This document shows positions 2,580 through 22,497 of a stretch of DNA of 28,313 nt, one piece after another. Both the position numbers and the translations under genes were made by a program. The notes beneath the pieces are model-generated. The model was not told the DNA's origin. It made no database searches and saw only the letters and a program-made list of their open reading frames with translations. Origin of the DNA: a virus (lineage: Duplodnaviria > Heunggongvirae > Uroviricota > Caudoviricetes). Location of the stretch: the IMG/VR virus record IMGVR_UViG_2721755712_000003, positions 1 through 28,313 of that record. The stretch is one strand, 5' to 3'. Each line of letters begins with the position of its first letter. The first letter of the stretch is position 1.

Positions 2580-3001
2580 TTGATTAGCTGGTATAGAGTG
2601 AGACAGGATGCCTTATCGACCTTACTCTGGCAACTGATTGACGGGGGATTGCTCCCCCGTCGCGGTTTCCTTACTGCTTACACTGTAAGAACGCCGCAAA
2701 CTCCGCTCCCCAGAAACTCATCCGTATTTCACACAGCGAACCGTGCAGCATCCAGATGATGAGGATTGCCGTCACGCAGAACGTGATGGCCGTAAGCGAT
2801 TTTTGCGACATAGCACTTGCTCCTTTTCCGGAGAGGCGCTAACCTTTCACTTGTCAAGGTAATGCGGTTAGGGCCTCGGTTAAACAGATATGTTTTCCGG
2901 GGCCTTTCCACATCCGGCCTTCGGGTATTCCCTCCGACCATCAGCCGAAAGGCACCCGCACGTAATCTATCGCTTTTTTGTTACTCCGGCAATTCTGCCT
3001 G

Positions 3002-3262
3002 TTAATCCTGAGGTAAAGGCAAACTCATCTGATTGTTTCCCCTGTGTGAAGCTGGCAGCTCATGCCACGGGATACCTTCTGATGAGTGAACGCCGGAGGC
3101 GTGTTTCGATGTGAATTTATGGAAAGCTTCCAGTGTTGAGAAGCATACGCCGCATTCCAGATTGTTACACTGGTAATACTTTTGCCGCACGGTGTTTGAA
3201 TCATTTTCCGGACGACTGGTGCGGATACGGGCAGATGCGCCACAAAGCGGACAACGGAACAT
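3002..3262 (-). CDS. ogr: Ogr/Delta-type zinc-finger late-gene transcriptional activator
   Basis: 86 aa, MFRCPLCGASARIRTSR...YYQCNNLECGVCF with the C-x2-C...C-x4-C arrangement typical of P2 Ogr. GGGAGG SD before ATG at 3260-3262. Confidence 0.9.
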   Translation of the reverse strand: MFRCPLCGASARIRTSRPENDSNTVRQKYYQCNNLECGVCFSTLEAFHKFTSKHASGVHSSEGIPWHELPASHRGNNQMSLPLPQD

Positions 3263-4149
3263 AGCGACCTCCCTTAACGTGGTGCTGCCGCTATTCTAAG
3301 TTGCTCACTCTGTTTCCGCTATCCATTCCGGGATTTTTGCCTCAAGCTCAAGCTGCGTGGTAAAGCCGCTGTTATCAATGGTGTGCCCGGCTTTTGCAAT
3401 AATCCAGTCCTGATTATCAATCTCGCTTTTAAATCCTGTTACCGTGCCATGCATTTCGGGGTAGAGCTCTGCACGTCCACGCGCCAGCGTGATGGAGAAT
3501 GATGCGGCTCCGCGTTGTAGTTGCTGCCACTTTGCCGCCGCTGCGCGTCTTGCTGCCTGCTCGTTCTGATAAGTCTTGCGTAACACAAACACATTGCCTT
3601 CCGCGCCTTCCATATAATCACCTTCACGGCTGCTGCTTTTCTCCTTTTTGGGTTTTGGCGGTTTACGGCGTTTCACGCTGACTTTTTTCTTTTTCCCGTA
3701 ATTAAGATCAAGCCAGTAGGCGCGTACCCCCGTATACGCCTCGCGGTCAGCAATGCGGAACTGATGGCGATCGCCGCTGCTGCGTGTAATGGCGAACGAG
3801 GGCAACGGCTGGCCCTGTGCGTTCACGCCACCACCTGGCATGATGAATAACAGATTGCCGCTTTTTACCGTGGTGATTGCACCCAGCATTTCCGCCATGC
3901 GCGTAAGGAAGGACATGTCGCTTTCTTCGGTCTGGTCGGCGTGGTCGATTTCGATATCCATCAGCATTTCGCTGATTTGCGGTTTCAGACCATACCGATG
4001 AGCGATGGCGGATACCACACGCTCAACGGTCACATCATGCCAGGACACCTCACGTTTAACGTTAAATTCATCCCAAAAATCTGCGCTTCTGGCTGAAACA
4101 GTCAGCCTGTCCGGCGGTCCTTCGTGAGCGATTTCATCAACAATGTAAG

Positions 4150-5370
4150 TGTAGATTCAATTGGTCAACGCAACAGTTATGTGAAAACATGGGGTTGCGG
4201 AGGTTTTTTGAATGAGACGAACATTTACAGCAGAGGAAAAAGCCTCTGTTTTTGAACTATGGAAGAACGGAACAGGCTTCAGTGAAATAGCGAATATCCT
4301 GGGTTCAAAACCCGGAACGATCTTCACTATGTTAAGGGATACTGGCGGCATAAAACCCCATGAGCGTAAGCGGGCTGTAGCTCACCTGACACTGTCTGAG
4401 CGCGAGGAGATACGAGCTGGTTTGTCAGCCAAAATGAGCATTCGTGCGATAGCTACTGCGCTGAATCGCAGTCCTTCGACGATCTCACGTGAAGTTCAGC
4501 GTAATCGGGGCAGACGCTATTACAAAGCTGTTGATGCTAATAACCGAGCCAACAGAATGGCGAAAAGGCCAAAACCGTGCTTACTGGATCAAAATTTACC
4601 ATTGCGAAAGCTTGTTCTGGAAAAGCTGGAGATGAAATGGTCTCCAGAGCAAATATCAGGATGGTTAAGGCGAACAAAACCACGTCAAAAAACGCTGCGA
4701 ATATCACCTGAGACAATTTATAAAACGCTGTACTTTCGTAGCCGTGAAGCGCTACACCACCTGAATATACAGCATCTGCGACGGTCGCATAGCCTTCGCC
4801 ATGGCAGGCGTCATACCCGCAAAGGCGAAAGAGGTACGATTAACATAGTGAACGGAACACCAATTCACGAACGTTCCCGAAATATCGATAACAGACGCTC
4901 TCTGGGGCATTGGGAGGGCGATTTAGTCTCAGGTACAAAAAACTCTCATATAGCCACACTTGTAGACCGAAAATCACGTTATACGATCATCCTTAGACTC
5001 AGGGGCAAAGATTCTGTCTCAGTAAATCAGGCTCTTACCGACAAATTCCTGAGTTTACCGTCAGAACTCAGAAAATCACTGACATGGGACAGAGGAATGG
5101 AACTGGCCAGACATCTAGAATTTACTGTCAGCACCGGCGTTAAAGTTTACTTCTGCGATCCTCAGAGTCCTTGGCAGCGGGGAACAAATGAGAACACAAA
5201 TGGGCTAATTCGGCAGTACTTTCCTAAAAAGACATGTCTTGCCCAATATACTCAACATGAACTAGATCTGGTTGCTGCTCAGCTAAACAACAGACCGAGA
5301 AAGACACTGAAGTTCAAAACACCGAAAGAGATAATTGAAAGGAGTGTTGCATTGACAGATTGAATCTACA
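4150..5370 (+). mobile_element. IS30 insertion sequence, complete (1221 bp), flanked by 2-bp target duplication AG
   Basis: Left end TGTAGATTCAATTGGTCAACGCAAC at 4150; right end is its imperfect inverted copy (22 of 25 matches) ending at 5370. AG at 4148-4149 and 5371-5372. Length equals canonical IS30. Confidence 0.95.
4212..5363 (+). CDS. insI: IS30 transposase
   Basis: 383-aa ORF MRRTFTAEEKASVFELWKNGTGFSEIANILG... recognised as the E. coli IS30 transposase (HTH N-terminus, DDE core). Confidence 0.95.
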   Translation: MRRTFTAEEKASVFELWKNGTGFSEIANILGSKPGTIFTMLRDTGGIKPHERKRAVAHLTLSEREEIRAGLSAKMSIRAIATALNRSPSTISREVQRNRGRRYYKAVDANNRANRMAKRPKPCLLDQNLPLRKLVLEKLEMKWSPEQISGWLRRTKPRQKTLRISPETIYKTLYFRSREALHHLNIQHLRRSHSLRHGRRHTRKGERGTINIVNGTPIHERSRNIDNRRSLGHWEGDLVSGTKNSHIATLVDRKSRYTIILRLRGKDSVSVNQALTDKFLSLPSELRKSLTWDRGMELARHLEFTVSTGVKVYFCDPQSPWQRGTNENTNGLIRQYFPKKTCLAQYTQHELDLVAAQLNNRPRKTLKFKTPKEIIERSVALTD

Positions 5371-5794
5371 AGTGCCTTTTTCTGTCAGCGGTTCTCCCTT
5401 CCAGCCAATGAGAACCGTCAGGCGCGCGCCCCGTGGCGGTAGCTGCAACTGACCATCCGCATCATCCAGCGTGATGGTGAGCTGGTCCGCCTCAAATCCC
5501 CGGTTGTCGGTCAGTGACAGGCTCATCAGGCGCTCTGCCACGCCTGACAGCGTTTTACCCTCCGCGAGAATATCAAAATCCGGCATTTTTACGGGGTCTG
5601 TGCCCTGACTGAGCAATTGCATGGTGGTGTCGGTCATCTGCTCCCTCCCTGTGCGGCATGGTCGCATGTGCGTGCGGAGGGGGTTACTGCTTTTTGTTGT
5701 CGCCGTGGCGAGAGAACGGCGCAGGGGTGAGATTACGCGCGTGGTGGGTGATGATTGTTGCCGAATCATTTAACGGATACAAGGGGCTGAAGCT

Positions 5795-6979
5795 ATGAGT
5801 GAAACTCGTTTTCATGGTGCCCGTGTTACGGAAAATACCGACCTGGTAACAGCGATTAACGATGTTGATTCCAGCGTTATCGGTATCGTGGCAACGGCGG
5901 ATGATGCGGACGCGAAGCTGTTCCCGCTGAACAAGCCCACACTGCTGACCCGCGTCAATGACGTGCTGGGAAAATGCGGGACAACGGGGACGCTTTATCG
6001 TGCGCTTAAGGCCATCGCAGACCAGGTGAGTACAAAGGTGATCGTCGTTCGCGTGGCTGAACACAAAGAAGAAGACGGAAAAACGCAGGATCAACTGGTT
6101 ATCGGTGGTTCTGAATCTGACGGCAGCTATACGGGGATGTATGCGCTGCTTGTTGCAGAGCAGGATGAAAGCATCGGATACCGTCCGCGTATTCTGGCCG
6201 CGCCGGAGCTGGACACGGAGGCGGTAACAAAATCCCTGTGCGTGATTGCGGGTAAACTGCGCGCGTTTGTGTATGCCTCATGTCACGGCTGTAACACGAT
6301 GGCTGAGGCGATTACCTACCGCCAGAAATTCAACGAACGTGAGGTGATGCTCTTATGGCCGGACTTCATCGCCTACAACCCGAAAAGTGGCAAAAACGAA
6401 ACGTTCCCCGCGCCTGCCTATGCGTGCGGCCTTCGTGCGTACATTGACCATGAGCAGGGTTGGCACAAATCGCTGTCCAACGTTCCGGTTAAAAATGTGC
6501 TGGGGATGTCCAGGCATGTGTTCTGGTCGTTGCAGGCCGAAGACAGTGATGCCAACAGCCTCAACAACAAAGAAATCACGACCATTATTCGTCGCAACGG
6601 GTTCCGCTTCTGGGGCAACCGCACACCGGAAACGAACGCCTACATCTTTGAGGTGTATACCCGAACCGCACAGGTGCTGGCTGATTCAATTGCGGAAGCG
6701 CAGTTTGAAACCATCGATAGTCCACTGACGCCTGCGAACGTGAAGGATGTTATCAGTGCCATCAGGGCAAAACTGGATTCACTGGTGACTGCCGGGAAAC
6801 TGATTGGGGCGTCGTGCTGGTATGACGTGGTGGATAACAGCACCACGAATTTACGTCAGGGGCGTGTGCGTATTCGCTACAAATATACGCCCGTTCCTCC
6901 GCTGGAAGACATGGAGCTTTACCAGTCGTTTACTGATGAATTCTTTGGTCCCGCATTTGCGGTGCTGGGAGGTGCCTGA
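5795..6979 (+). CDS. FI: contractile tail sheath protein
   Basis: 394 aa, AAGGGG SD; conserved blocks FPLNKP, WPDF, GFRFWGNRT, YKYTPVPPLE matching P2 gpFI. On the opposite strand to the other late genes. Confidence 0.95.
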   Translation: MSETRFHGARVTENTDLVTAINDVDSSVIGIVATADDADAKLFPLNKPTLLTRVNDVLGKCGTTGTLYRALKAIADQVSTKVIVVRVAEHKEEDGKTQDQLVIGGSESDGSYTGMYALLVAEQDESIGYRPRILAAPELDTEAVTKSLCVIAGKLRAFVYASCHGCNTMAEAITYRQKFNEREVMLLWPDFIAYNPKSGKNETFPAPAYACGLRAYIDHEQGWHKSLSNVPVKNVLGMSRHVFWSLQAEDSDANSLNNKEITTIIRRNGFRFWGNRTPETNAYIFEVYTRTAQVLADSIAEAQFETIDSPLTPANVKDVISAIRAKLDSLVTAGKLIGASCWYDVVDNSTTNLRQGRVRIRYKYTPVPPLEDMELYQSFTDEFFGPAFAVLGGA

Positions 6980-7491
6980 TGGCTGTACCAAAACATCTTC
7001 GCTTTTTTACGCTGTTTGTGGATGGTGAAAACGAAGTGGGTAAGGTGACGTCCGTCACCCTGCCTAAACTGACGCGCAAAACCGACAGCTACCGGGGTGG
7101 TGGCATGATGGGTGCGGTAAGTATTGATCTCGGTCTGGACGACTCCGCGCTTGATGCGAGCTTTGTCATGGGGGGCGCAGTTCGTGAGCTGTTCCTTAAG
7201 TATGGCGGCACGATTGACGGCACGCTACTGCGTTTTGCGGGTGAATACTACACCGATGCAGAAAGCGACCTGTATGAAGTCGAAATGCGCGGACGCGTGA
7301 CGGAAATTGATATGGGGGAAGCCAAACAGGGCGAAGCCACATCACACACTTACGCCATTAAAAACACCTACTACAAGCTGAGTGTTAACGATCGTCCGTT
7401 GTGGGAGATTGACCTGCTGAACTTCATTTACCGGAAGGACGGCAAGGACATTGTGCCCGATCGCATCCGTTCCGCGCTTGGGCTTGGCTGA
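6979..7491 (+). CDS. FII: tail tube protein
   Basis: 170 aa; ATG overlaps the FI stop (TGATG), the usual FI-FII position and size. Confidence 0.9.
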   Translation: MAVPKHLRFFTLFVDGENEVGKVTSVTLPKLTRKTDSYRGGGMMGAVSIDLGLDDSALDASFVMGGAVRELFLKYGGTIDGTLLRFAGEYYTDAESDLYEVEMRGRVTEIDMGEAKQGEATSHTYAIKNTYYKLSVNDRPLWEIDLLNFIYRKDGKDIVPDRIRSALGLG

Positions 7492-7545
7492 TAAGTAATA
7501 TGCAGGCGGCGCAGTGCGTCGCCTCTGACTGAAAGGAGTTTCCTG

Positions 7546-7911
7546 ATGAAAGAGACGAAAAACATCGATACCGAAAACACGGTAGTTGCTGACACTGTGA
7601 AAGAAACCAGTGAGCGTGGCGTAAAACTTACCCAACCAATTGAGCGAGGCGGCGAAAAAATCACGTATGTGGAGATCACCGGGGCTATTGAGCAGGCTGG
7701 ATCTCTGCGAGATTTGTCGCTGTCTGATGTGCTGAATCTGAAAGCGGAATCCATGTTTACGCTGCTGTCACGAGTGACATCACCGCGACTGGATGAAGTG
7801 ACGATCAAAAAAATGGCATCCCGTGACTTTATTCAGTTATGTGTGGTTGCCGTAAATTTTTTGAGCGGTGCGGACTCTGGCGGGAAGAACGAACAGGCGA
7901 CGGAAGCCTGA
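7546..7911 (+). CDS. E: tail assembly chaperone gpE (zero-frame product)
   Basis: 121 aa, AAGGAG SD 7 nt upstream; lies between tube and tape-measure genes and contains the slippery heptamer near its 3' end. Confidence 0.8.
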   Translation: MKETKNIDTENTVVADTVKETSERGVKLTQPIERGGEKITYVEITGAIEQAGSLRDLSLSDVLNLKAESMFTLLSRVTSPRLDEVTIKKMASRDFIQLCVVAVNFLSGADSGGKNEQATEA

Positions 7912-8075
7912 TCACGGTTGTGTGCTTTGAGCACATAGAAGACTTTGTGGCAGATATTGCCGTTATTTTTAACTGGTCGCCCGCCGAAATCTTCATGATG
8001 ACGCCCGGCGAAGTGGTTAGCTGGCGTGAGCGGGCGGCACTTCGCAGCGGGAATGCAGACAATGAAGACTCTTGA
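7546..8075 (+). CDS. gpE+E' chaperone fusion made by programmed -1 frameshift at 7857-7863
   Basis: Zero-frame codons AAT TTT TTG (N F L). A -1 slip on T TTT TTG reads TTT GAG CGG..., which is exactly ORF 7839..8075 (FFERCGLW...), ending with TGA at 8073-8075. Confidence 0.75.
7857..7863 (+). promoter_or_regulatory. T-TTT-TTG slippery heptamer for the E/E' -1 frameshift
   Basis: Read directly; frame relationship verified by coordinate arithmetic (E in frame 1, E' in frame 0). Confidence 0.75.
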
Positions 8076-10869
8076 TATCCGGGTCGCTTTCAGCGCCGTT
8101 GACAGGCTGACCCAGCCTGCCGAAAACGCCCGCCGCCTGATGGGGCAGTTTGGTGACTCCATCCAGCGAACGCAGGGGGCGATCAAAAATCTCGAGCGTC
8201 AGGCGCGTTCATTTGAGCGCGCCCGCGACGCTGTCAGTAAAGCGGATGCGGGTATCGTGAAAGCACGACGCCAGCTTAACGCCCTTAATCAGTTACAACG
8301 CACGGGTACAGTGCTCAGCGAAAAACAACAAAAGCTGATGCAGCAGTTAAGCACCCGGCTTGAACGCCTGAATGAATCGCGCACGCGGGAAATTCAGAAA
8401 ATGCGGGAGCTTGGCGGAGAGCTGAAACGCCACGGCATTTCCCTGACAGGCAGCGATAACACCATCCAGCAGGCCATCAGACGCACCGAACAGTACAACA
8501 ATCAGCTTGAACGCGAACGGCAGGCGCTTGCGCGTGTAACGCGGGCGCGTGAGCGGTATTCGCGCGCGCAGGAAACAGCGGGAAAACTGAAAACAGGTGG
8601 TGCACTGGCAATTGGTGCGGCAGCGGCGGGCGGCTATGCTGCCGGGCGTTTTTTGCAGCCTGCGATCGGGTTCGGGAAAGAGATGTCCCGCGTTCAGGCA
8701 CTGACGCGAATCGACCAGAACAGCCCGCAGTTTAAGGCGCTGCGTGAGCAGGCGTTAAAACTTGGCTCTGAAACGCAGTTCACCGCAGGCGATGCCGCCA
8801 GTGGGCAGGCATTTCTGGCAATGGCTGGCTTCACACCGCAGGCCATTCAGGCTGCGCTTCCCGGCGTGCTGAGCATGGCAACGGCTGGCGGTATGGACCT
8901 TGGCGAGACGGCAGATATTGGCTCAAATATCCTGACGCAGTTCGGCCTCTCCGCTGACCAGATGGACCGGGTCGGTGACACGCTTACAGCAGTGTTTACC
9001 CGTACTAACACTGACCTTCGCGCACTGGGCGAAACCATGAAATATGCAGGTCCGGTGGCGGGTAAGCTGGGAATATCGCTGGAGCAGGCCGCAGCGATGG
9101 CGGGCGTGCTGGCGAATATGGGTATCAGAGGGAGTGATGCCGGGACGGCAATGCGTGCCAGCCTGGCTCGTCTGGCATCACCGCCAAAGGCGGCAGCAGA
9201 AGCGCTGAAAGAGCTGGGTGTGTCCGTCTCTGATGCGAACGGCAAAATGCGCCCGATGGAAGATGTGCTGGCCGACCTTTATAAAGCCACCCGTAAATAC
9301 GGGGAAGTTGACCGGGTATCGTTCTTTAAGGACATTGCCGGGGAAGAGGCTTTCACGTCGTTTATGGCTCTCGTTGATGCGGCGGGTGACGGCTCCCTGC
9401 CCAAACTGAGAAAAGAACTTGAGGGCGCACGCGGTGAGGCTGAACGCACGGCAAAGGTTATGGCCAATAACCTTGATGGCGACCTGAAATCACTCGGCAG
9501 TGCATGGGAAGGGCTGCGTATCCGCATTGCAGATCTGATTGATGGTCCGCTGCGTTCTGTCACGCAGTGGCTCACGCGGGTGGTCTCAAAGGTGACGGCG
9601 CTGGCACAGGCCCATCCGGTACTGACGCGCCAGTTACTGATAGCAGGCGGTGCGCTGCTGGCAATGACTGCAACGGTTGGCTCGTTGTCGCTGGTTATTG
9701 GAGTGCTTCACGGGAAGCTGGCCACGTTGCGTCTTGGTTTTTCTCTCCTGACCGGATCAATGAATGCTGTCAGGCTCCTGCCAGCACTATGGGGAATGGT
9801 GACGGGTTCCGTTTCGTTACTGGGGGGCGCTATCGGGGCGCTGTTCAGCCCGGTCGGATTGATTGCTGCTGCGTTTGTGGCTGCGGCAGTTCTCATCTGG
9901 AAATACTGGGAACCCATCAAGGCGTTTTATGCCGGGGTGTTCAGCGGGATTATGGAGCGGCTGGCCCCGTTACGCGAAACCTTTGAACGGTTTGGTCCTG
10001 TTTTTGACGCAATCGGAAGCGGGATAAGTCAGGTGTTTAACTGGTTTAAATCGTTGCTGTCACCGATGGAGTCCAGCAAGGAAACGCTGGATAAATGTAC
10101 CAGTGCTGGCGAGATATTCGGTAACGTTCTTGGCGGTGCGTTACAGCTTGTTCTGACGCCCGCAAAAATGTTGCTGGATACGCTGGCGTGGATACTTGAA
10201 AAACTCGGTGTGCTTCCGGATGAAGCGGAAAGGGCGAGAAAGAAAATCGAAGACGCACAGCGTGCGGCCATTCTTCAGGACAAGGTTGCTCTGTTTCAGG
10301 GAGACATTGCGAAAATCAATCCGCCGAAGTCTGCGGAAAATGGCAATGGCACCGGAGGTGATAAACCCAAAGACAATAAACCGCTCACAGACAGCAATAC
10401 CGGTACGCTACGCAGACTCAGCAAAATTGCTGATAACACAGGTAAGCTGGTTGATGAGACGAAAAAACGTATTGGCCCCGGCGATATTGTCTTTAAGAAC
10501 CTGCCCCGCGCACTTGCCGTTCGTGGGGAGTGGCAGGAGCGGAAGATTGTGCAGGTCAGTAAGCCTGCCCCCGCAATTAATATCACACCCGTGGTCCCGG
10601 CTCCGCTGCCTCCGGCGCTGGTCCCTGTTGTTGCGGCCAGCTCCCGCCCGGTGGCGGAGGCCATACGATCTCCAGTGGCATCAGTTCCTGTAACTTCCCG
10701 TAACCGGGAGCCTGTTGCCTCCGGATTTGGTGGTGAAATTCATGTTCATCTGCATAACGTTGTTACGCAGAATCCCCGCGAACTGGCGAAACTGGTCGGT
10801 GAAATGGTCAGGGCAGAAATGGAACGGCGCGCCCGTGCCGGGCGTGGCAGTTTTTACGATAAAGATTGA
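8053..10869 (+). CDS. T: tail tape measure protein
   Basis: About 938 aa, coiled-coil N-terminus, central hydrophobic block, Ala/Gly-rich segments, Pro-rich C-terminus. Start taken at ATG 8053 (or 8062), overlapping the E' end. Confidence 0.9.
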   Translation: MQTMKTLDIRVAFSAVDRLTQPAENARRLMGQFGDSIQRTQGAIKNLERQARSFERARDAVSKADAGIVKARRQLNALNQLQRTGTVLSEKQQKLMQQLSTRLERLNESRTREIQKMRELGGELKRHGISLTGSDNTIQQAIRRTEQYNNQLERERQALARVTRARERYSRAQETAGKLKTGGALAIGAAAAGGYAAGRFLQPAIGFGKEMSRVQALTRIDQNSPQFKALREQALKLGSETQFTAGDAASGQAFLAMAGFTPQAIQAALPGVLSMATAGGMDLGETADIGSNILTQFGLSADQMDRVGDTLTAVFTRTNTDLRALGETMKYAGPVAGKLGISLEQAAAMAGVLANMGIRGSDAGTAMRASLARLASPPKAAAEALKELGVSVSDANGKMRPMEDVLADLYKATRKYGEVDRVSFFKDIAGEEAFTSFMALVDAAGDGSLPKLRKELEGARGEAERTAKVMANNLDGDLKSLGSAWEGLRIRIADLIDGPLRSVTQWLTRVVSKVTALAQAHPVLTRQLLIAGGALLAMTATVGSLSLVIGVLHGKLATLRLGFSLLTGSMNAVRLLPALWGMVTGSVSLLGGAIGALFSPVGLIAAAFVAAAVLIWKYWEPIKAFYAGVFSGIMERLAPLRETFERFGPVFDAIGSGISQVFNWFKSLLSPMESSKETLDKCTSAGEIFGNVLGGALQLVLTPAKMLLDTLAWILEKLGVLPDEAERARKKIEDAQRAAILQDKVALFQGDIAKINPPKSAENGNGTGGDKPKDNKPLTDSNTGTLRRLSKIADNTGKLVDETKKRIGPGDIVFKNLPRALAVRGEWQERKIVQVSKPAPAINITPVVPAPLPPALVPVVAASSRPVAEAIRSPVASVPVTSRNREPVASGFGGEIHVHLHNVVTQNPRELAKLVGEMVRAEMERRARAGRGSFYDKD

Positions 10870-10881
10870 GGAGTCATGGCC

Positions 10882-11370
10882 ATGATGATGATCTACGGCA
10901 TGTTTGTTTTTGAGCTGCGCACGCTGCCGCATCAGCAGTTACAGCAAAACAAAAGCTGGCGGCATGTGAAAAATGAACGCGTTAACCGTTCAGCAAGCTG
11001 GCAGTATATCGGTGCAGGTGATGATCGCATCGTTCTTTCTGGTGTGCTTTATCCTGAAATTACAGGTGGCGAAGTGTCGCTGTCGCTGCTGACCACGCAG
11101 GCGTATACAGGACGACCCTGGCCTTTGATTGATGGCGTCGGGCAGATTTACGGCATGTATGTCCTGACCGGAACGAACACGACCCGTTCCGAGTTTGATC
11201 GCTACGGTAAGGCGAAAAAGATAGAATTTTCACTGACCCTTGAACGCTGTGATGAGGATTTGCGGGAGCGCCTGCAATCCTCATCGTTCAGCGATATGCT
11301 GTCCGGCTTCAAAGATAAAGTGACATCATCCCTTAACAGCGCGGCCAGTTCAGTTAAAGGGCTGTTCTGA
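10882..11370 (+). CDS. U: tail protein gpU
   Basis: MMMIYGMFVFELRTLP... matches the P2 gpU N-terminus as remembered (MMMVLGLFVFMLRT). GAGGAG SD 8 nt before ATG 10882. Confidence 0.9.
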   Translation: MMMIYGMFVFELRTLPHQQLQQNKSWRHVKNERVNRSASWQYIGAGDDRIVLSGVLYPEITGGEVSLSLLTTQAYTGRPWPLIDGVGQIYGMYVLTGTNTTRSEFDRYGKAKKIEFSLTLERCDEDLRERLQSSSFSDMLSGFKDKVTSSLNSAASSVKGLF

Positions 11371-11376
11371 TTTAAT

Positions 11377-11410
11377 GCTGGCCACTCATACCTGGTAATA
11401 AGTGGCCAGT
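11377..11410 (+). terminator. hairpin downstream of U (9-bp stem CTGGCCACT/AGTGGCCAG, 14-nt loop)
   Basis: Read directly; no U-run follows, so terminator function is uncertain. Lies at the proposed right inversion breakpoint. Confidence 0.3.
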
Positions 11411-11532
11411 CTTAACACTCACCATTTGATTGCACCCGCGTTAACGATTTGTTACTGGGTATCAGACATGCTGGATAGCCAGTAGAAACATACCATTAAA
11501 ATTATTACAATAATTGGTCACATGATTATCTT

Positions 11533-12020
11533 ATGCTGAATAATAGAGATATGAATATTAATGAACTTAAAGACTGTATTCACTATGAAGTAATCGGTAG
11601 CGAGCGTCCTTTCTCCTGGCGAAAGGCAATTGTTCGCGCAATAAAACATAGAAGACTTCGTTATTTATTTTGGTGGCGCATAGCCAAATACCTTTTTGAT
11701 AAAGGCGGATACTGCCGGAAGATTGCGGGGAAAATAGAACGTTTCATTCTTGATAAATATAATGTAACAGTCCCTTTAACTGTAAATATAGGGAAAGGCT
11801 TTGATATTTCTTATCTCAACAGTGTTGTTATCGGTCACAAAGTAACAATCGGTGAAAATTGTTCAATAAAACCGGGGGTAACTATTGGGCTACGTGGTGA
11901 TTTTAATGATATGGATATTGTTATAGGACATAATGTGACCATTGGTTGTAATGCCACCATTCTTGGTGGCAAAGTGCGTATAGGAAACAATGTCACAATA
12001 GGTGCTCATGCATTGGTAAC
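11533..12020 (+). pseudogene. left-handed beta-helix (hexapeptide-repeat) sugar O-acetyltransferase-like gene, WcaB/CysE-like, probably 3'-truncated
   Basis: AT-rich ORF with tandem [LIV]-G-x-x-x-x-[IV] hexapeptide repeats (VVIGHKVTIGENCSIKPGVTIG..., IVIGHNVTIG..., VRIGNNVTIGAHALV). Base composition switches at about 12010-12020, beyond which the ORF is antisense of the fibre gene. Confidence 0.6.
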
Positions 12021-12465
12021 CACCACCTTCAAGAACTTCAAGGAGTCCCTGACCATAACTTCCTTCTTCCGGATAGTTGCGGTCAAATGAAGCGATTGAG
12101 CCACTACTGTTTCGCCATAAACCAAGATGCTCTGCGCCTCCGAGCGTGTTCAGGTCAATGGTTGTGCTCAGGGGGCGTGTTGCAGACTGAACCTGACGCC
12201 AGTAACTCCACGGACCGTCTGAACCATTCCATGTGCCAGAAAGGTTGCGCATATAAACATTGCCTGTTCTGGTGGTGTAACGCTGCATTCCTGCAAAATT
12301 ACCGCCATTGAATACCTCCAGTACACCGACTGCACCGTCTTCAGGGAAATTTTTAGCAGCCGTCGCGTTAGTGGATGTAGCTTTAGACCAGACGCCAAGA
12401 TAAGCCTTAACGGGACCAAATGTATTCAAGTCAGCATCAAGCGGCATTTCGCCATTGTTTTTCAT
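12021..12465 (-). pseudogene. tail fibre C-terminal receptor-binding fragment (N-terminal shaft missing, C-terminus cut)
   Basis: Two tandem copies of a fibre-tip-like motif (DLNTFGPV...GVLEVFNGGNFAGMQRYTT...W..W and DLNTLGG...GLLEVLEGGG); the second copy breaks off at about 12021. Starts 5 bp after the J stop with no gpI gene between. Confidence 0.6.
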
Positions 12466-12470
12466 AAACG

Positions 12471-13316
12471 TCAGGCTGGTAACGCCAACATTGTCCAGAA
12501 AAGCGCCCTTATCTCCACGCGTTGCACACCGTGCACATGCAGTGCGGCAGCAATGGCGGACAACGCCACGTCCTGACCGATAAGCCCCTGCTCAGCCAGC
12601 CACTTCCTGAACGACGATTCAGCCGCAGCCAGAATAGGTTCGGATTCCGGGCCGGGATAAAAGTACAGTTTTGCATTCAGCCGCCATGTCACGATTCTGG
12701 CGCTCTGTACGGTCAGGCGGTCGGCCACCGGGCGGGTATCCTCTGCATTCAGAACGGCACGAACGGTATTAAGCAACGCCTCCGTTGCTGTGCCGTCGCC
12801 TTCAGTGGACAGGATGGAAACCGTCACACAGGCCGGAGACGGGCTGATGGCCCGCGCATCACGCACCAGACCGCTGGCGCTGCGTGCAAAATACTCGTAT
12901 GCACCTGACGGGCCAGCAACACTCAGGCCGTCGTACGCCCGCTGCGCCCGCAGTCTCAGCGAGGTGTCGCTCTCCATCACCGCGTCGGTGGTATCCGTTG
13001 CCGGAGTGATAACCAGGCGCTTTGTGTTCATATTGCCCGCGAGGTTGTCCAGGTCTGTCCCGGCGCTGTGGCTTAACATGCAGGCGCGTGCACCCTCATT
13101 GACCCGCTGGCGTAACAGCATTTCACGAAACGCTGTTGTCTGGGCGATAACGTTCAGGGGTTCCGATTCCAGCTCCAGCGCAGCGGAAACGGCTTCACGC
13201 TGTTCGGCGGGATAAGCTGCAATCATCATGGCCTTTGTGTCAGCCAGAATTGCTTCAAAGTCAGGCTCCGCGATGATGGCGGGTTCTGGTAACTGGGAAA
13301 GGTCAACGGCGGGCAT
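12471..13316 (-). CDS. J: baseplate assembly protein gpJ
   Basis: 281 aa, follows W in canonical order; slightly shorter than the roughly 300 aa expected, so the C-terminus may be affected by the adjacent deletion. Confidence 0.8.
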   Translation of the reverse strand: MPAVDLSQLPEPAIIAEPDFEAILADTKAMMIAAYPAEQREAVSAALELESEPLNVIAQTTAFREMLLRQRVNEGARACMLSHSAGTDLDNLAGNMNTKRLVITPATDTTDAVMESDTSLRLRAQRAYDGLSVAGPSGAYEYFARSASGLVRDARAISPSPACVTVSILSTEGDGTATEALLNTVRAVLNAEDTRPVADRLTVQSARIVTWRLNAKLYFYPGPESEPILAAAESSFRKWLAEQGLIGQDVALSAIAAALHVHGVQRVEIRALFWTMLALPA

Positions 13317-13319
13317 GAT

Positions 13320-13670
13320 TTACTCCCTCAGCGTGATGGTTAACTCAACATTCTGCATGGTCTGCATGACAGTGCCCGACAGCGTCACCCCGGCGCGGCC
13401 TCCCGCTTTCCAGACAACGTCAATGGCATCCAGGGCAATGCGGGGTTCCCATCGTGTCAGCGCAATCACGGCAGCACTCATGCATTGCAGACGCGTGGTG
13501 TTATTCATGGGTTCGTCAATCAAATCAGGCACAAGGCTGCCATATTCCCGTCGCATAACCCGGCTTGCCAGCGGGGTGGTCAGGATGTCCCTGACTGACT
13601 GTTTCAGGTGCTCCATATCGTTCAGGTTTCCCGTTCCGTCCGGGTTCATTCCTGTGTAGCGGGTTGTCAC
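13320..13670 (-). CDS. W: baseplate protein gpW
   Basis: 116 aa; position and size between V and J; start overlaps the V stop. Confidence 0.85.
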   Translation of the reverse strand: MTTRYTGMNPDGTGNLNDMEHLKQSVRDILTTPLASRVMRREYGSLVPDLIDEPMNNTTRLQCMSAAVIALTRWEPRIALDAIDVVWKAGGRAGVTLSGTVMQTMQNVELTITLRE

Positions 13671-14248
13671 TGTGGGCCTCCTGTCGAATCGCTGCCGCCT
13701 TTCACGCCACCGTGTTTATGCGTATGCACTGTAATGCCGTTTGAGGTGAAGTTGCCGCCGCTGTGCGTGATATTGCCGCTCATCTTTCCTCCTTTTGTGA
13801 CGTCAAGCGTCGCCGTTCTCAGAAGGTTTGTGCATTCCACGACGGGCGTATCCAGTTTCACGCTGACGGATGCCTGTAAAGTGGCCGTTTTCATGCCGCT
13901 GGCGCTCAGTGCGCCAGCGTCCGCGTCGTAGCGGAACACCGCGCCGTCCGGCGCGCTGATCACGATTTCTTTCAGGCTTTTGCCGGGGGCCGGACTGGCA
14001 TCACTCCACAGGCTGCCAATTATCATGGCGGTTTCCGGGTTGCCGCCAATGCAGGCAATTACCACCTGTTCGCCGGGTGATGGCGGCAGCCACACATTGA
14101 AGGCTCCCGCGCGCGTGGTGTTCCAGCGCAACCAGTCTGTTTCCAGTTCGCCGCTGCGAACGCGCACGCGCCAGGACTTCTCATCAACTTCAGAGATGAT
14201 CCCGGTGCGGATGATATTGCTCAGCAGTCGCATGAGTTCTGCGCTCAC
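13667..14248 (-). CDS. V: baseplate spike protein gpV
   Basis: 193 aa, canonical position; Gly-rich C-terminus. Confidence 0.85.
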   Translation of the reverse strand: MSAELMRLLSNIIRTGIISEVDEKSWRVRVRSGELETDWLRWNTTRAGAFNVWLPPSPGEQVVIACIGGNPETAMIIGSLWSDASPAPGKSLKEIVISAPDGAVFRYDADAGALSASGMKTATLQASVSVKLDTPVVECTNLLRTATLDVTKGGKMSGNITHSGGNFTSNGITVHTHKHGGVKGGSDSTGGPQ

Positions 14249-14889
14249 CGTACAGCCTCCGCAATCCGGCCCAGCACCGTGTTATAAATCAGGCGCTCAT
14301 CTGTCTGGCTGATACCCAGCAGCTCACGTGCCGGGTAATTGGTGAAAATGCCCGGCGCAACCTGATCGCGCTCACCGAACTGATGAACGCGGGCAATACG
14401 TGCGGCCACGCCGCTGTAACCCACCGTCACACCGGAAGCATCTGCACGGGCTTTCAGGTAGCGGGCGGTGCGCAGTTTTACGAACATGGGGACGCGCTTT
14501 GTGCTGTCCTGGTTGATGCGCCGGGTGCGTATTTCCAGAAAACGGTCGATGTCATCCCGGTAAAACGTGCGGATATTGTTTTTATCCTCATCCCACCCGG
14601 TAATGGTTCGCCCGTATTTCCCCGTGTCGTGATGCCAGTTTTTCAGCGTGCGTGCTTCGTTATTCCAGATAAAGCGAATGCGTTCCTGTATCCGGGTTAC
14701 GCGGCGTCTGCGTGGTGTCCACGCGGTCCCGTCCGGCGCTTTCTGTGACCGGATACGCGCCTGCTGGGCGCGGCGTAAATCCTGTGCCAGCTTTCTGGCG
14801 ATGTTATTGATGGCCTGCTGATTCAGGCTGTCGCGGATGGCCTCAAAGGTTTCATCCACGCGGGTGAATGCCTTATCCATCGCTTTCAC
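14245..14889 (-). CDS. S: tail completion / virion morphogenesis protein, gpS-like
   Basis: Between R and V; 214 aa if started at 14889, longer than the roughly 150 aa expected, so the true start may be internal. Confidence 0.6.
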   Translation of the reverse strand: MKAMDKAFTRVDETFEAIRDSLNQQAINNIARKLAQDLRRAQQARIRSQKAPDGTAWTPRRRRVTRIQERIRFIWNNEARTLKNWHHDTGKYGRTITGWDEDKNNIRTFYRDDIDRFLEIRTRRINQDSTKRVPMFVKLRTARYLKARADASGVTVGYSGVAARIARVHQFGERDQVAPGIFTNYPARELLGISQTDERLIYNTVLGRIAEAVR

Positions 14890-15340
14890 CCCACGTCACA
14901 TCCTGGAATACATGCGACCAGTCGCCTTCGGAAGATGGCAGGCGGGGTTTTGGCTCCGGCAGGTGTTCTGCCTGCGGTGTGCCCTGACTGCTGCGCGTGA
15001 TGCGAACGCGTTCCCGCAGGGGGAGCGTAAACAGGAGATCGGCGCTGTCATCGTCATTGATAACGGCGGAAAATTTGATGTCCTGATTACGCTCAGGGTT
15101 GAGCAACAATTGTGGCTGATTTTCGGATAACCACGCCAGCAGCGGCAGCGTGAGGTCGTCCAGCTCCCCGGCGTAATCCATGACAAACATCACCATCTGA
15201 TAGCGGTAAACAAACGATGGGGTTTCTCCTGTCGTTTCAATGTTGCCGCTCTCCACGAAAATGGTGAATTTTTCCGGGTTGGCCTGACACCATCGGCATG
15301 AACGGGTCATGGCTTCACGCAGGGAATCAGTTTTCAGCAT
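14873..15340 (-). CDS. R: tail completion protein gpR
   Basis: 155 aa, the size and position of P2 gpR downstream of the lysis genes. Confidence 0.8.
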   Translation of the reverse strand: MLKTDSLREAMTRSCRWCQANPEKFTIFVESGNIETTGETPSFVYRYQMVMFVMDYAGELDDLTLPLLAWLSENQPQLLLNPERNQDIKFSAVINDDDSADLLFTLPLRERVRITRSSQGTPQAEHLPEPKPRLPSSEGDWSHVFQDVTWGESDG

Positions 15341-15617
15341 GGTTGTTATCCTCGTTGTTCAGTCGTTGCAGCCTGCGCTGTTCCAGTAATTCAATGGCCC
15401 GTTTATCCGCGTTACAGGTTTCCAGTGCATCCAGAAGGCGGTCGCCCCATATACCGAGATTTCCCCATGTGGGAGTATCAGGGAAGGGGGGAGGCGTTAC
15501 CGGTATGGTCAGCGTCTGCGGTATAAGCCGGACTGACGGCGCTGGCCGTGGCGCGTTCTGCGTGCCTGCGCAGCCTGTCAGTAAAACGAGCGTCAGGCAA
15601 AGCGTGGGCGCATTCAT
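15327..15617 (-). CDS. o-spanin (Rz1/LysC-like outer-membrane lipoprotein)
   Basis: Lipobox LLTGC, Pro-rich mature region (PPPFPDTP); overlaps the i-spanin gene out of frame. Start at M1 (15647) or M11 (15617) is uncertain. Confidence 0.6.
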   Translation of the reverse strand: MNAPTLCLTLVLLTGCAGTQNAPRPAPSVRLIPQTLTIPVTPPPFPDTPTWGNLGIWGDRLLDALETCNADKRAIELLEQRRLQRLNNEDNNHAEN

Positions 15618-15885
15618 CTTTTGCAATATCGTTGCGTAGCTGTTCACGTCTTACCTCTCCGTCCTGATTGCGTTGCTGATTTTCCACGCGGAGTTGCGCC
15701 AGCACCTGCTGCATATCCTGTACCCCGGCGCTGATAATATTCAGGGTGTCGGCGGTACTTTTCAGGGTGCTGGCCTGCGCTTCGTTTCTGGCGTTCTCCC
15801 GGCCCAGCGACCACGACAGACGCATGGATGTTCCCCATCCAGCAATCAGAAGGAAAGCGACGCCCAGCGTGGGCCAGAGCTTCAT
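15478..15885 (-). CDS. i-spanin (Rz/LysB-like)
   Basis: ATG 15883-15885 overlaps the endolysin stop (ATGA); N-terminal TM (LWPTLGVAFLLIAGWG) then a coiled-coil-like periplasmic part. Confidence 0.6.
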   Translation of the reverse strand: MKLWPTLGVAFLLIAGWGTSMRLSWSLGRENARNEAQASTLKSTADTLNIISAGVQDMQQVLAQLRVENQQRNQDGEVRREQLRNDIAKDECAHALPDARFTDRLRRHAERATASAVSPAYTADADHTGNASPLP

Positions 15886-16274
15886 GCCGGATAGGCTCCG
15901 TGTGGTAACTGAAAATGCGGTCCGTCTTTCAGGGTCTTCCAGTCGCCGCCCCATTCCACCGGAATATTCAGTTCCCGGCTGGCCTGTCTGAATGCTGCTG
16001 CGATTTTTTCGTACAGCGGCCATTCCCATGACACCTGGCTGCCGATATAAGCCACAACATCCACGGCATGTCCCGTAAGGTGGCGGCTGTTCATGGTCTG
16101 GCTCTTACCCGTGGCCACCAGTTGCTTCTGGTGGTAACGGCTGCGCAACCCTTCGGTGATACCAAAATCCACTTCCGAAATTTCCAGTGCCCGTCGGGTC
16201 ACTTTCACCAGATCAGGATTTACGCCCTGCAAATTCTTTTCGCTCCGGCTGCTGAATTTAAATGTGTTGCTCAT
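15882..16274 (-). CDS. endolysin, M15-type peptidase (L-alanyl-D-glutamate peptidase-like)
   Basis: 130 aa with SRHLTGHAVDV and WGGDW blocks typical of peptidase M15 endolysins; start overlaps the holin stop. Confidence 0.75.
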   Translation of the reverse strand: MSNTFKFSSRSEKNLQGVNPDLVKVTRRALEISEVDFGITEGLRSRYHQKQLVATGKSQTMNSRHLTGHAVDVVAYIGSQVSWEWPLYEKIAAAFRQASRELNIPVEWGGDWKTLKDGPHFQLPHGAYPA

Positions 16275-16594
16275 TCGTCCTTCTCCTTCACCCTGCGATT
16301 AAAGGCTGCAATAACCTTGTCGCGTGCTTTCTCTGCGCCCATAAAACCGATTGATGCGCCGATAAACGTCACGGCATCTTCAGGAAAACCGAAGAAGCGC
16401 AACGATCCGGCCACGGCCATGGCAAGAACGCCGCACGCCAGCGATCCCGTTACGGTCTGAACCAGTGTTCGTCCGTCATAAAGACTCATCAGCGCGGAAA
16501 TGCTGACCGCCGCGCCTACTGCATACACCGTTGGCAGGTGGTCAAAGAGCCACGCAATAACCTGCTCTGTGATCCCTGTTTGAATGGTGCTCAC
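16271..16594 (-). CDS. holin
   Basis: GTG start with GGGGAG SD, 2 nt after the X stop; about 108 aa with two or three hydrophobic helices and a charged C-terminus (KVIAAFNRRVKEKDE). Confidence 0.65.
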   Translation of the reverse strand: MSTIQTGITEQVIAWLFDHLPTVYAVGAAVSISALMSLYDGRTLVQTVTGSLACGVLAMAVAGSLRFFGFPEDAVTFIGASIGFMGAEKARDKVIAAFNRRVKEKDE

Positions 16595-16596
16595 TG

Positions 16597-16797
16597 CTAC
16601 TCCCCCCACAACTGAATCATTTCTCGTTTCTTCTTCTCCGGCTCCGGCATCTCCACTTCCTGCCCGGCGTCCAGAAATACCTGCTGACAGAGTCCGGGGT
16701 TGGCATCCAGCACCTTTTCGGTGACGCCCTGCGTCGTGCCGTAGTACCGGAAACAGAGCGAATCCACGGTGTCGCCTTCCAGTACCTTCACTTTCAT
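16597..16797 (-). CDS. X: tail protein gpX (LysM-like)
   Basis: MKVKVLEGDTVDSLCFRYYG...ANPG... resembles P2 gpX as remembered (LQGDTLDAICVRYYG...ANPGL). Start overlaps the L stop. Confidence 0.85.
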   Translation of the reverse strand: MKVKVLEGDTVDSLCFRYYGTTQGVTEKVLDANPGLCQQVFLDAGQEVEMPEPEKKKREMIQLWGE

Positions 16798-17291
16798 CAG
16801 CACAACTCCGCAAAGATTCGCGGGCGGCACAGAATGTCAGAGATGGCCCAGCTCACATCACGCCACAAATCCGATGTCTGTATATCCAGAGCGTCCGCCC
16901 GGCGGTCGCCCTTGTCCGTTGTGTCTGCATCACGATAACGCTCCAGAATCAGGGCGCGCGTGGCGGTATAAACAGCATTGCGCCAGTGCCAGAGATTGAC
17001 GCTTTCTCCGTTAATTACGGGTGCCGGAACATCGGCCAGCGTCTGATGGCCAGCCGCCTGCTGTTCCTGCTGCCATGCTTCCAGCTCGCGGGTAACGTGT
17101 GCCACGGCCCCAGTGGCGGTATGCAGCAGGCGGGAGGTGGTCACACGGCCCGGCAGTCGTACCGCCAGACGCAGCTCACGCAGCACAATATCCGGCCAGA
17201 ATGCACCCGCTGAAATACGGGTATCACCATCATCGGTATCGGTGATGTCGTCCTCTGCGGGTCCGGGGTTGGTTCTGGCAACCATACTCAT
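16797..17291 (-). CDS. L: head completion/stabilisation protein gpL
   Basis: About 165 aa, downstream of M; GGAGTGA SD before ATG 17289-17291. Confidence 0.85.
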   Translation of the reverse strand: MSMVARTNPGPAEDDITDTDDGDTRISAGAFWPDIVLRELRLAVRLPGRVTTSRLLHTATGAVAHVTRELEAWQQEQQAAGHQTLADVPAPVINGESVNLWHWRNAVYTATRALILERYRDADTTDKGDRRADALDIQTSDLWRDVSWAISDILCRPRIFAELC

Positions 17292-17392
17292 TGGGTTCAC
17301 TCCTGAAAAAATCGGGCGGTGGGTGCGCGGTGTAAACGGTCACGGAGTCAAACCGGAACACCGCGCACGCCGCCCGCTGACGGGGTCAGTCG

Positions 17393-18193
17393 TTAACCGC
17401 GCTTCGCCTTCTGCGTCGCGGTGGTTTTTCGTGTTGCAGGCTTCCGCGTTGTCTTTTTACTTTTGCTGCTTTCGTCCTGCGCCTGCGGTGTGCTGGCGTC
17501 TTCTGGTTCGGCTGCGGAATCGGCTTTTTTCAGGGCGCGGGAAAGGGTTGCAATCTCGCGTTTCACACCTGCGTTCGGGTTCAGGTGCATCGCTTCGCGC
17601 AGCAGCTTCAGTGATGAGGCCATGCTGTCCGCATCGCTCAGGCCACGGCGGGCAAAGGCGCACGCCTTGCATAATTTGGCGCGCACTTCGTCCGGCATAT
17701 CCTGGTTGGCGACAATTTCCCAAAGTGTGTCCAGTGGTTCGATAAAGGCGGACAAATCCGCGTCGGCATCCGTCCCGGCCTGCGTCAGTACCGGGTTGCA
17801 GATTTCTTCGGTCAGTACCGTGGCAGCAGTACGGCCAAAGTTATCCGGCATGATGAGGTTGTGACGGACCACATACGCACCAATACGCAATGCCAGCGGA
17901 AGATCGCCGCAGTCAATCGCCCACACCATCAGCGTGGCAATCACCTCATCTTGCTGCCCGCCGTCAGCCTCCAGCGTTCCTTCAATCCAGCCGGAAAAGT
18001 CCGGTAACAACTCTTTTTTGATGGCGGCTTTGGCGCTTCTGGCCTGTACGCCCTTAAGTCGGGCCTGTGCCAGACGCAGACGATACAGCACCTCTTCATG
18101 CGCGGTACGTGCGGCGTGATCCACGCCTTCATTCGCCCGGCCTGCGCGCTGCGCCATCACGTTCTGCCAGTGTTGCTGTGCAGGGGTAATCAT
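17393..18193 (-). CDS. M: terminase small (endonuclease) subunit gpM
   Basis: 266 aa, GGAGAGAAAG SD, basic C-terminus; canonical position after N. Confidence 0.9.
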   Translation of the reverse strand: MITPAQQHWQNVMAQRAGRANEGVDHAARTAHEEVLYRLRLAQARLKGVQARSAKAAIKKELLPDFSGWIEGTLEADGGQQDEVIATLMVWAIDCGDLPLALRIGAYVVRHNLIMPDNFGRTAATVLTEEICNPVLTQAGTDADADLSAFIEPLDTLWEIVANQDMPDEVRAKLCKACAFARRGLSDADSMASSLKLLREAMHLNPNAGVKREIATLSRALKKADSAAEPEDASTPQAQDESSKSKKTTRKPATRKTTATQKAKRG

Positions 18194-18210
18194 TCTTTCT
18201 CTCCGTTACA

Positions 18211-18229
18211 GGCGGGCATGATGCCCGCC
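18211..18229 (-). other. 19-bp palindrome GGCGGGCAT-G-ATGCCCGCC between N and M
   Basis: Read directly; candidate stem-loop in the N-M intercistronic RNA. Confidence 0.3.
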
Positions 18230-18238
18230 GTGAGTTGA

Positions 18239-19243: not shown

Positions 19244-19288
19244 GTAGCAGCCCAGCTTGTTACGGGCATTAATTACTCAGGGGGAGCA

Positions 19289-20542: not shown

Positions 20543-20544
20543 GT

Positions 20545-21828: not shown

Positions 21829-22194
21829 TTACTGCGTCATACCGTTCAGGGTGTCACGGCAAACGGCAGCCAGCCGCTGAATTTCCAGCACGGTGTCTTC
21901 TGTGTCGGCATAGCGATGTGTGATGCGGATGCTGTCGGCAATCACATCGACGATTGCAGAGGATGGGCGCTGGTAAATGCCAATAACGGACGGAGTGCCA
22001 CCTTCAATGCGGTAAAGCCTGTAATTTCCCTCGTGGCTGTCAATCATGTAGCGACCATCAATAACAATCTTTCCGTCAGCGAGCTGCGGTACAGGCAGGG
22101 ATTTCAGGTACATGTCATAACGTTCACGCACGCGAACGGCAAGATCACGCTCTGTGTTGAGCAGGTATTCAAGAAAGTCGTTGGCGAGAATCAT
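21829..22194 (-). CDS. hypothetical early protein, 121 aa, immediately upstream of A
   Basis: Stop 6 nt before the A start; no recognisable motif. Confidence 0.5.
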   Translation of the reverse strand: MILANDFLEYLLNTERDLAVRVRERYDMYLKSLPVPQLADGKIVIDGRYMIDSHEGNYRLYRIEGGTPSVIGIYQRPSSAIVDVIADSIRITHRYADTEDTVLEIQRLAAVCRDTLNGMTQ

Positions 22195-22266
22195 TGCGGC
22201 AATCCTCTTGTTACAGATGTGCGAAGGCCTCCTGCCGCAAGGTGCAGGAAAGGCCCGGAACAGGAA

Positions 22267-22497
22267 TTAATGGAGTTTGTTTTGCTGCTGGATGAGCTGC
22301 TGAAGCTCGCGCAGATCATCCGCCAGATAACTGAAAACAGCGGATGAGTAGAGGTTTGAAAGTTCGCAGCTACGCTCATGCAGCATATTGATGTGCATGA
22401 TTTTAGCGACGCGGAATGCGCGGGAAAGTCTGCGGTTGATTTCAGTCTGGATGTGACGACGCTCCGCGATAGCGCGGTGCTGTTTGCGGTTTGCCAT
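22267..22497 (-). CDS. hypothetical basic 76-aa protein
   Basis: AAAGAGG SD 7 nt before ATG 22495-22497; preceded by a structured, GC-rich leader. Confidence 0.45.
   Translation of the reverse strand: MANRKQHRAIAERRHIQTEINRRLSRAFRVAKIMHINMLHERSCELSNLYSSAVFSYLADDLRELQQLIQQQNKLH

Follow-up and report, generated by a model that had tools for sequence, protein, structure and literature searches.

The divergent D/FI tail-gene layout of a decayed P88-like prophage of Escherichia coli and of its P2-like relatives

The window analysed here is the whole 28,313-nucleotide stretch of IMG/VR virus record IMGVR_UViG_2721755712_000003, and it holds a decayed P88-like prophage (Xuanwuvirus, Peduoviridae) of Escherichia coli, located between flk and pdxB. 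The tail genes FI to U of this prophage run away from the tail gene D and against all other late genes. Very probably this is the native and fixed architecture of a clade of P2-like phages, left by one old inversion in place, in which a single box for the late activator Ogr probably drives two divergent promoters, pF for FI-U and pD for D.

Gene identities were taken from the open reading frame (ORF) table and from Pfam scans, with matches above the curated cut-offs. FI, FII, E/E', T and U lie on the plus strand (5795-11370), and ogr, D, J, W, V, S, R, the lysis genes and the head genes lie on the minus strand; this layout is a direct reading and does not require a chance model. The P2-type late gene set is present, with sheath, tube, tape measure, U, D, J, W, V, S, R, capsid and the Ogr activator recognised by Pfam. 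The D start codon is at 5637 (CAT at 5635-5637), preceded on the D strand by GGGAGGGAG, and the FI ATG is at 5795. A preliminary description of this DNA, which had reported the opposed strands and the 157-bp gap between D and FI, is borne out in both respects by the ORF table and Pfam.

The comparison with P2 (Peduovirus) on which that description relied also holds, as FI-FII-E-T-U-D-ogr are all on the plus strand of the P2 record. The P2 F operon has the same genes in the same internal order (FI-FII-E-E'-T-U), followed by D as its last gene, with the D start overlapping the U end, and then by ogr. In the window, by contrast, D is a separate divergent unit, and the baseplate and tail-completion genes J, W, V, S and R (12471-15340) converge on the FI-U block. 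The block is thus inverted in place relative to P2, and to that extent the single inversion of about 5.7 kb proposed earlier stands. It is not an event in this genome or a misassembly of it, since relatives share the order.

Gene order in relatives of the prophage

The best phage-record matches of the window by megablast are P88, PhiR44_2, Citrobacter PhiSM, P884B11, 500465-2 and others, all of them Xuanwuvirus or P88-like and matched at one place on the same strand, and the identity of 95-97% for the five named phages extends over ogr, D, the D/FI spacer, FI-U and the genes from J to the capsid. The sheath protein FI is 99% identical to that of PhiR44_2 and 47% identical to that of P2. Four blocks are collinear with P88 at 96-97% identity (2630-4151, 5370-11375, 12509-19266 and 19270-20543). 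The second of these, which comprises the 5' end of D, the spacer and FI-U, is one unbroken block of 97% identity with both P88 and PhiR44_2 in blastn. The annotation of P88 and PhiR44_2 reads D on the minus strand, 157 bp, FI to U on the plus strand, and then G, H, I, J and further genes on the minus strand; strand layout and the 157-bp spacer are those of the window. The same divergent order is present in PhiSM, P884B11, SEN5 and KSP20, and the annotated SEN5 and KSP20 records have the D homologue on the opposite strand directly upstream of FI. Both P88 and PhiSM are active as phages, on induction or spontaneously (PMC5285337; PMC6456863), and the divergent layout is therefore compatible with a working virus. 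Of 5426 complete E. coli genomes, 1115 contain the P88 D/FI junction without a break.

The order extends well beyond close relatives. SEN4/SEN5 (Senquatrovirus), KSP20 and Klebsiella Reipivirus/Reginaelenavirus prophages belong to other genera and have no nucleotide-level similarity to the window, with FI identities of 55-70% (Klebsiella Kp4848-1 70%, Serratia KSP20 68%, Salmonella SEN5 55%), and they share both the divergent layout and a spacer centred on a dyad. Two surveys were made, each covering the best 80 of about 590 FI relatives in its collection (species-level genomes or IMG/VR contigs). The species-level loci were located by FI alignment, and ogr, D, FI, FII, U, J and V were placed by tblastn. 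Where FI shares at least 55% identity with that of the window, all 40 loci have ogr and D on the minus strand, FI to U on the plus strand, and J and V on the minus strand. Their hosts are Salmonella, Citrobacter, Enterobacter, Kosakonia, Klebsiella, Raoultella, Trabulsiella, Yokenella, Brenneria, Pectobacterium, Symbiopectobacterium, Serratia, Pantoea, Mixta, Erwinia tracheiphila, Providencia, Morganella, Xenorhabdus and Dryocola. Near 50% FI identity, the P2 order (V J .. FI .. U D ogr) is found in 39 of 39 classifiable loci, among them loci of Solimicrobium, Collimonas and Paraburkholderia (Burkholderiales), Acinetobacter and Celerinatantimonas; the 80th locus, on a Pseudomonas asuensis contig that ends before D, could not be classified. 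The IMG/VR survey gave the same division, with 77/77 loci at FI identity of at least 55% divergent and two loci at 50% collinear. The P88 group, the 1115 E. coli genomes and every locus of both surveys above that identity (40/40 and 77/77) thus have natively the order that the preliminary description had taken for a rearrangement. When FI identities were clustered by the unweighted pair group method with arithmetic mean (UPGMA), the two clusters reproduced the arrangement classes exactly (42 versus 40).

One contig labelled as a Firmicute, 'Vagococcus sp. WN89Y' (NZ_JBQPOM010000071.1, 226 kb), carries a prophage whose FI and D are 97-99% identical to those of the E. coli/P88-type element. This contig is probably contamination or a mislabelled assembly.

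The simplest reading of this distribution is one inversion in the ancestor of a branch of Peduoviridae that infects Enterobacterales, with the P2 order ancestral. The block of the pF promoter together with FI to U would have been inverted in place once, long ago, and the resulting architecture, with ogr and D leftward, FI, FII, E, E', T and U rightward, and (G, H, I), J, W, V, S and R leftward, would since have been native and fixed in the clade. Single origin and polarity are deduced from the surveys, and the P2 order is taken as ancestral because the collinear order has the broader host range. The opposite polarity, with the collinear P2 order derived from an ancestral divergent one, is improbable. 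Polarity does depend on outgroup sampling, and the between-group FI identity of 44-59% gives no root; yet the collinear order is found in the broadest set of hosts (Enterobacterales, Burkholderiales, Acinetobacter and Celerinatantimonas), and the divergent order is seen in Enterobacterales hosts only, save for the Vagococcus-labelled contig. Mu-like phages and R-type pyocins likewise have the genes from the sheath to U and D in collinear order.

Explanations confined to a single genome or to a switching element fare worse: the data rule out a misassembly, an inversion private to this genome, an event mediated by IS30 and a flip-flop switch. A recent inversion of about 5.7 kb private to this prophage or strain would suit a block inverted in place relative to P2 in a prophage otherwise heavily rearranged by insertion sequences (IS) and deletions, but it has next to no chance of being correct, given that isolated phages and 1115 complete E. 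coli genomes carry the identical junction at 97-100% identity, that the order is the same in relatives with FI only 55% identical, and that an IS-free sister strain has the same orientation. It is hardly conceivable that the FI-U piece was misoriented in the contig, as the only sign of such an artefact is the unusual order against P2; this order recurs in independent complete genomes, virion-sequenced phage genomes and IMG/VR contigs, and the junctions are without repeats able to mislead an assembler. The presence of a DNA invertase adjoining the U end in P88, in phages whose tail-fibre segments are known to invert, brings to mind a programmed invertible segment of the Gin/Cin/Pin type, or a flip between a pair of IS copies, with both orientations in populations. 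The likeness to Mu G, P1 C and e14 P consists in an inverted multi-kb tail-gene segment and the P88 invertase beside it, but the P88 invertase flanks C-terminal tail-fibre cassettes and not FI-U, and the FI-U block encodes sheath, tube and tape measure and not fibre tips. Nor are crossover inverted repeats present. Between the junction zones 5600-5800 and 11340-11560, exact inverted repeats extend to 7 bp at most, and 72% of shuffles match or exceed this, so that the search for short inverted repeats proposed in the preliminary description gave nothing, and a general repeat search of the window found no inverted or direct repeats linking the two junctions beyond chance. There is no invertase in the window, where homology to P88 ends at 11375, and no IS at either junction; the single IS30 copy, which lies inside D and has the usual 2-bp duplication, is missing from the sister strain. 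A synthetic collinear junction, with the U 3' end joined to the D 5' end, was matched at coverage of at least 80% in 0 of 1411 E. coli genomes carrying the genes. Such a switch is accordingly as good as impossible here. A paper on a Xenorhabdus tailocin describes inversions limited to tail-fibre cassettes.

The D/FI spacer and its predicted late promoters

The spacer between D and FI is 137-198 bp long in genomes (extrapolated), with a median of 172 bp in IMG/VR, and an alignment of 44 distinct homologous spacers, in which bases were counted at fixed distances from the dyad centre, shows conserved non-coding blocks. The common element is a dyad, GTTGTC-N10-GACAAC, which contains the motif TGT-N12-ACA, quoted in PMC3931495 as the P2 late promoter consensus. 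The exact motif is present in 23 of 40 P88-type loci and a form with one mismatch in 14 of 40, and 37/40 have the dyad centre 78-88 bp ahead of the FI ATG. SEN5 has the exact TGT-N12-ACA dyad, whereas the window has TGT-N12-AGA, which is detectable only when one mismatch is allowed and the comparative alignment is used. A search of the window for the exact motif gave 4 matches against 6.9 expected and none in the spacer, and a generic scan of the window for sigma-70 promoters and terminators remained at chance level. P2 has a pF-type box about 82-88 bp upstream of the FI ATG, and the distance between box and FI is the same in P2-type as in P88-type loci, which suggests that the box travelled with FI during the inversion. 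Three Providencia loci have a dyad about 77 bp upstream of FI in which both half-sites are changed symmetrically (GTTCTC-N10-GAGAAC), which suggests co-evolution with the local Ogr protein.

To either side of the dyad centre, at a distance of 44-49 bp, the 44 spacers have hexamers of the form NANNAT. The FI-side hexamer, the -10-like element of pF, has its A, A and T conserved in 43/44 spacers each, and P2 pO and P2-type loci have it at the same offset. In the D-side hexamer, 44-49 bp to the left, the conserved bases are A (43/44), A (34/44) and T (42/44), and the TG upstream of it has its G in 42 of the 44. Twenty-one P2-type loci served as a control: the FI-side hexamer is conserved in 19/21, and the mirror side, where no divergent gene is present, reaches at most 12/21. 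A further block of alternating C and G, with the 80% consensus C..GCGCGCG.G, is conserved throughout the clade on the D side only and falls in the spacer/-35 zone of the proposed pD. This block could be an additional, undescribed control element.

A precedent for two promoters around one activator site is found in P2 itself. P2 pP/pO has one annotated activator site with its centre at 3071.5 and starts at 3016 and 3127, 55.5 bp to each side, and its hexamers TAGCCT and GAAACT have the same 44-49 bp offsets as those of the D/FI spacer. The P88-type site differs in that it lies at D/FI and not at P/O, that its starts are predicted and that it has the extra one-sided C/G block. From the dyad and the mirrored -10-like hexamers in the geometry of pP/pO, we infer one activator box for divergent pD and pF. 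The inversion would have placed the pF box beside the start of D, and D would have gained a -10 element at the mirror distance; the inverted layout would work because the P2-type late activator site is a dyad. Binding of the box by Ogr and the two transcription starts are predicted in the same way, and ogr, encoded just downstream of D, would be the cognate activator gene of the Ogr/Delta family and may itself be transcribed from pD. The proposition that phages of the P88 clade have in their D/FI spacer a second late promoter that is bidirectional and Ogr-dependent, made by inversion and by evolution of a mirror-image extended -10, is judged from these sequence patterns to have an even chance of being right. 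The preliminary description had considered D to be separated by the inversion from its promoter. The D start is about 70 bp from the pF activator dyad and has a conserved -10-like element of its own, which argues against such a loss.

A different source of D and ogr transcripts would be an independent promoter that does not share the dyad, for example a constitutive one or one acting through the C/G block, and the mirrored -10 would then be coincidental or otherwise used. In favour of such a promoter are the separate promoter of P2 ogr, the restriction of C/G block conservation to the D side and the degenerate right half-site of the window. It is nonetheless rather unlikely, as the -10-like hexamer and TG occur at the exact mirror distance in the 44 spacers and are absent from the mirror side of the P2-type control, and as D is a structural late protein that must be made alongside the FI-U products.

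Several points weigh against the shared box and the single old inversion. The right half-site is AGA and not ACA in the window and in 13 other loci, the predicted pD start leaves a leader of only about 14 nt, and the conservation of the C/G block could mean a different regulator on the D side. The pD start, its dependence on Ogr and a common use of the box by both promoters are predictions from conservation and geometry. D proteins split less cleanly than FI in the two-cluster test, and mosaicism could therefore blur the claim of a single origin; moreover, both surveys covered the best 80 relatives, and exceptions may occur among more distant ones. With regard to earlier work, the layout, which is the usual one in a classified phage genus and its sister genera, can be called known on the strength of annotated public records, where it has been visible since KSP20 and P88, and no paper was found that states the inversion in words. 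Inversion, orientation and synteny go unmentioned in the papers on P88, SEN4/5, the C. rodentium prophage and, from 2026, P2-like diversity, and the reading of the spacer as a shared promoter may be new.

Other features of the window

Coordinates of the tail block, the spacer elements and the neighbouring genes are summarized in Table 1. ORF 3025-3243 was considered as ogr and rejected, as it has no Pfam match; the correct frame is 3002-3262. The homologues of E and E' in relatives carry the Prokaryotic Genome Annotation Pipeline (PGAP) names 'tail protein' and 'GpE family'.

Table 1. Features of the window, with positions counted from its first nucleotide
Feature	Position	Strand	Evidence and remarks
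ogr-type late activator gene	3002-3262	-	86 amino acids, Ogr/Delta zinc finger; Pfam PF04606, E 5e-14; ogr/Delta-like annotation in the 100%-identical O6:H16 genome
D (tail hub/late control D), C-terminal part, severed by IS30	3305-4149	-	Pfam Phage_GPD; 96-97% identity to P88 D
IS30 copy	4150-5370	+	Transposase 4212-5363; Pfam HTH_38 and rve
D, N-terminal 89 codons	5371-5637	-	Collinear with P88 D start (P88 record 2482 = window 5637)
D/FI divergent spacer	5638-5794	.	157 bp; proposed bidirectional late promoter region
-10-like hexamer GACCAT of proposed pD	5658-5663	-	TG-c-GACCAT = reverse complement of 5658-5666; predicted start near 5651
Alternating C/G block	5664-5677	.	D side of dyad; GCATGTGCGTGCGG in window, CATGCGCGCGCG in most relatives
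Ogr-type activator dyad (predicted)	5698-5715	.	TGT-N12-AGA within GTTGTC-N10-GAGAAC; centre 5706.5, 88 bp upstream of FI ATG
-10-like hexamer GATGAT of pF	5750-5755	+	Predicted start near 5762; bases 44-49 right of dyad centre
FI tail sheath	5795-6979	+	Pfam Phage_sheath_1, Gp18_domIII_N, sheath_1C
FII tail tube	6979-7491	+	Pfam Phage_tube, E 7.5e-47
E tail chaperone	7546-7911	+	Positional homology to P88 gp47 (P88 4391-4756, offset +3155)
E' segment, tail chaperone	7920-8075	+	Positional homology to P88 gp46 (P88 4765-4920, offset +3155)
T tape measure	8062-10869	+	Open frame 8026-10869; Pfam PhageMin_Tail, E 4e-59; start 8062 by homology to P88 gp45
U tail protein, final gene of inverted block	10876-11370	+	Pfam Phage_P2_GpU, E 1.5e-38
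Variable cargo region after U	11376-12022	+	Hairpin 11377-11410 (fold z = -2.9); hexapeptide acetyltransferase 11533-12090 (Pfam Hexapep)
Internal fragment of tail-fibre gene H	12023-12508	-	80% identity to PhiR44_2 H (its record 11541-12032); PGAP 'pyocin knob domain protein, incomplete'
J, C-terminally truncated	12471-13316	-	Pfam Baseplate_J
W	13320-13670	-	Pfam GPW_gp25
V	13667-14248	-	Pfam Phage_base_V/spike
S	14245-14889	-	Pfam Phage_tail_S
R	14873-15340	-	Pfam P2_Phage_GpR
Small terminase	17393-18193	-	Pfam
P2-family capsid	18239-19243	-	Pfam

On the right of the block, homology to P88, PhiR44_2 and EDL933 (O157:H7) ends at 11375, 5 bp past the U stop codon, and homology to P88 resumes at 12509. 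The interval 11371-11532, proposed earlier as the right breakpoint, can therefore not be taken for a scar of inversion; variable cargo and deletion scars follow the end of homology. The 3' end of the acetyltransferase, which is of the serine/O-antigen type, is fused at about 12022 to the internal H fragment, and genes I and G, both ends of H and the C-terminus of J are missing from the window. Exactly this acetyltransferase-H fusion is common to nine complete E. coli genomes. What follows U varies among relatives: P88 has a DNA invertase and opposed invertible tail-fibre/assembly cassettes (P88 8251-10955), a host-range switch, PhiR44_2 has about 250 bp without a gene, and the window and EDL933 have the acetyltransferase. 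The convergent U/G gap, a junction that the ancient inversion would have created, acts as a hot spot for cargo and, in P88, for the switch, and the P2 G-FI gap that holds Z/fun behaves in a similar way.

The IS30 copy is full length (1221 bp) and single, with terminal inverted repeats at 4139-4175/5345-5381. Junction alignment against P88 and an IS-free relative places it near codon 89 of D, where 2 bp of target (AG) are duplicated. It thus lies 267 bp inside D and outside the D/FI spacer, and the preliminary description was right to see it at neither breakpoint. Between flk and pdxB, E. coli O6:H16 2011EL-1370-2 has a prophage with 100% identity to the window except for IS30 and a deletion in that strain; this prophage lacks IS30, has D as an intact 369-amino-acid ORF and has the same orientation as the window. 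EDL933 carries an IS30-split copy that is more deleted than the window, and O157:H7 strains have IS30 at the same position in D together with a larger deletion.

Relative to P88, about 1 kb is deleted at window 19266-19270, and the first capsid codons, the whole scaffold/protease gene and the P/O promoter region are lost with it. The large terminase breaks off at about 20543, where it meets a gpA replication gene (20533-21822) that is itself truncated, and portal and par genes are absent. With D split by IS30, I, H and G deleted, an acetyltransferase in place of the invertase, and scaffold, portal and parts of terminase and gpA missing, the prophage is a defective remnant and not a complete functional genome.

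The prophage also contains accessory genes outside the late region. Between host flk (1-996) and ogr, cargo on the minus strand (1246-2811) comprises two VasI/TagO-like fragments (type VI secretion-associated), a zinc-ribbon protein and a hok/gef toxin gene at 2671-2811. An SPFH/Band-7 domain protein (22865-23695, minus strand) is encoded in the early region and is an unusual accessory gene for a P2-like phage. Rfam identifies C4 antisense RNA (87 bits) and the Hfq-binding small RNA isrK (66 bits) in tandem at 22554-22751 on the minus strand, overlapping the 22191-22865 frame (Ash family) of the early region; the same scan gave no match in or near the FI-U block.

Meaning for P2-like phages

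As this prophage is a dead remnant, its layout is without functional consequence for the host, and the significance of the layout lies with the clade. The gene order of P2 cannot serve as the template for every P2-like prophage. The divergent D/FI layout is present in about a fifth of complete E. coli genomes and should not be flagged as a rearrangement or misassembly. The clade provides a comparative example in which a late operon would have been split by inversion without losing co-regulation, the Ogr box being symmetric. If the shared promoter is real, it would be a natural case of an operon split rescued by a shared dyad activator site.

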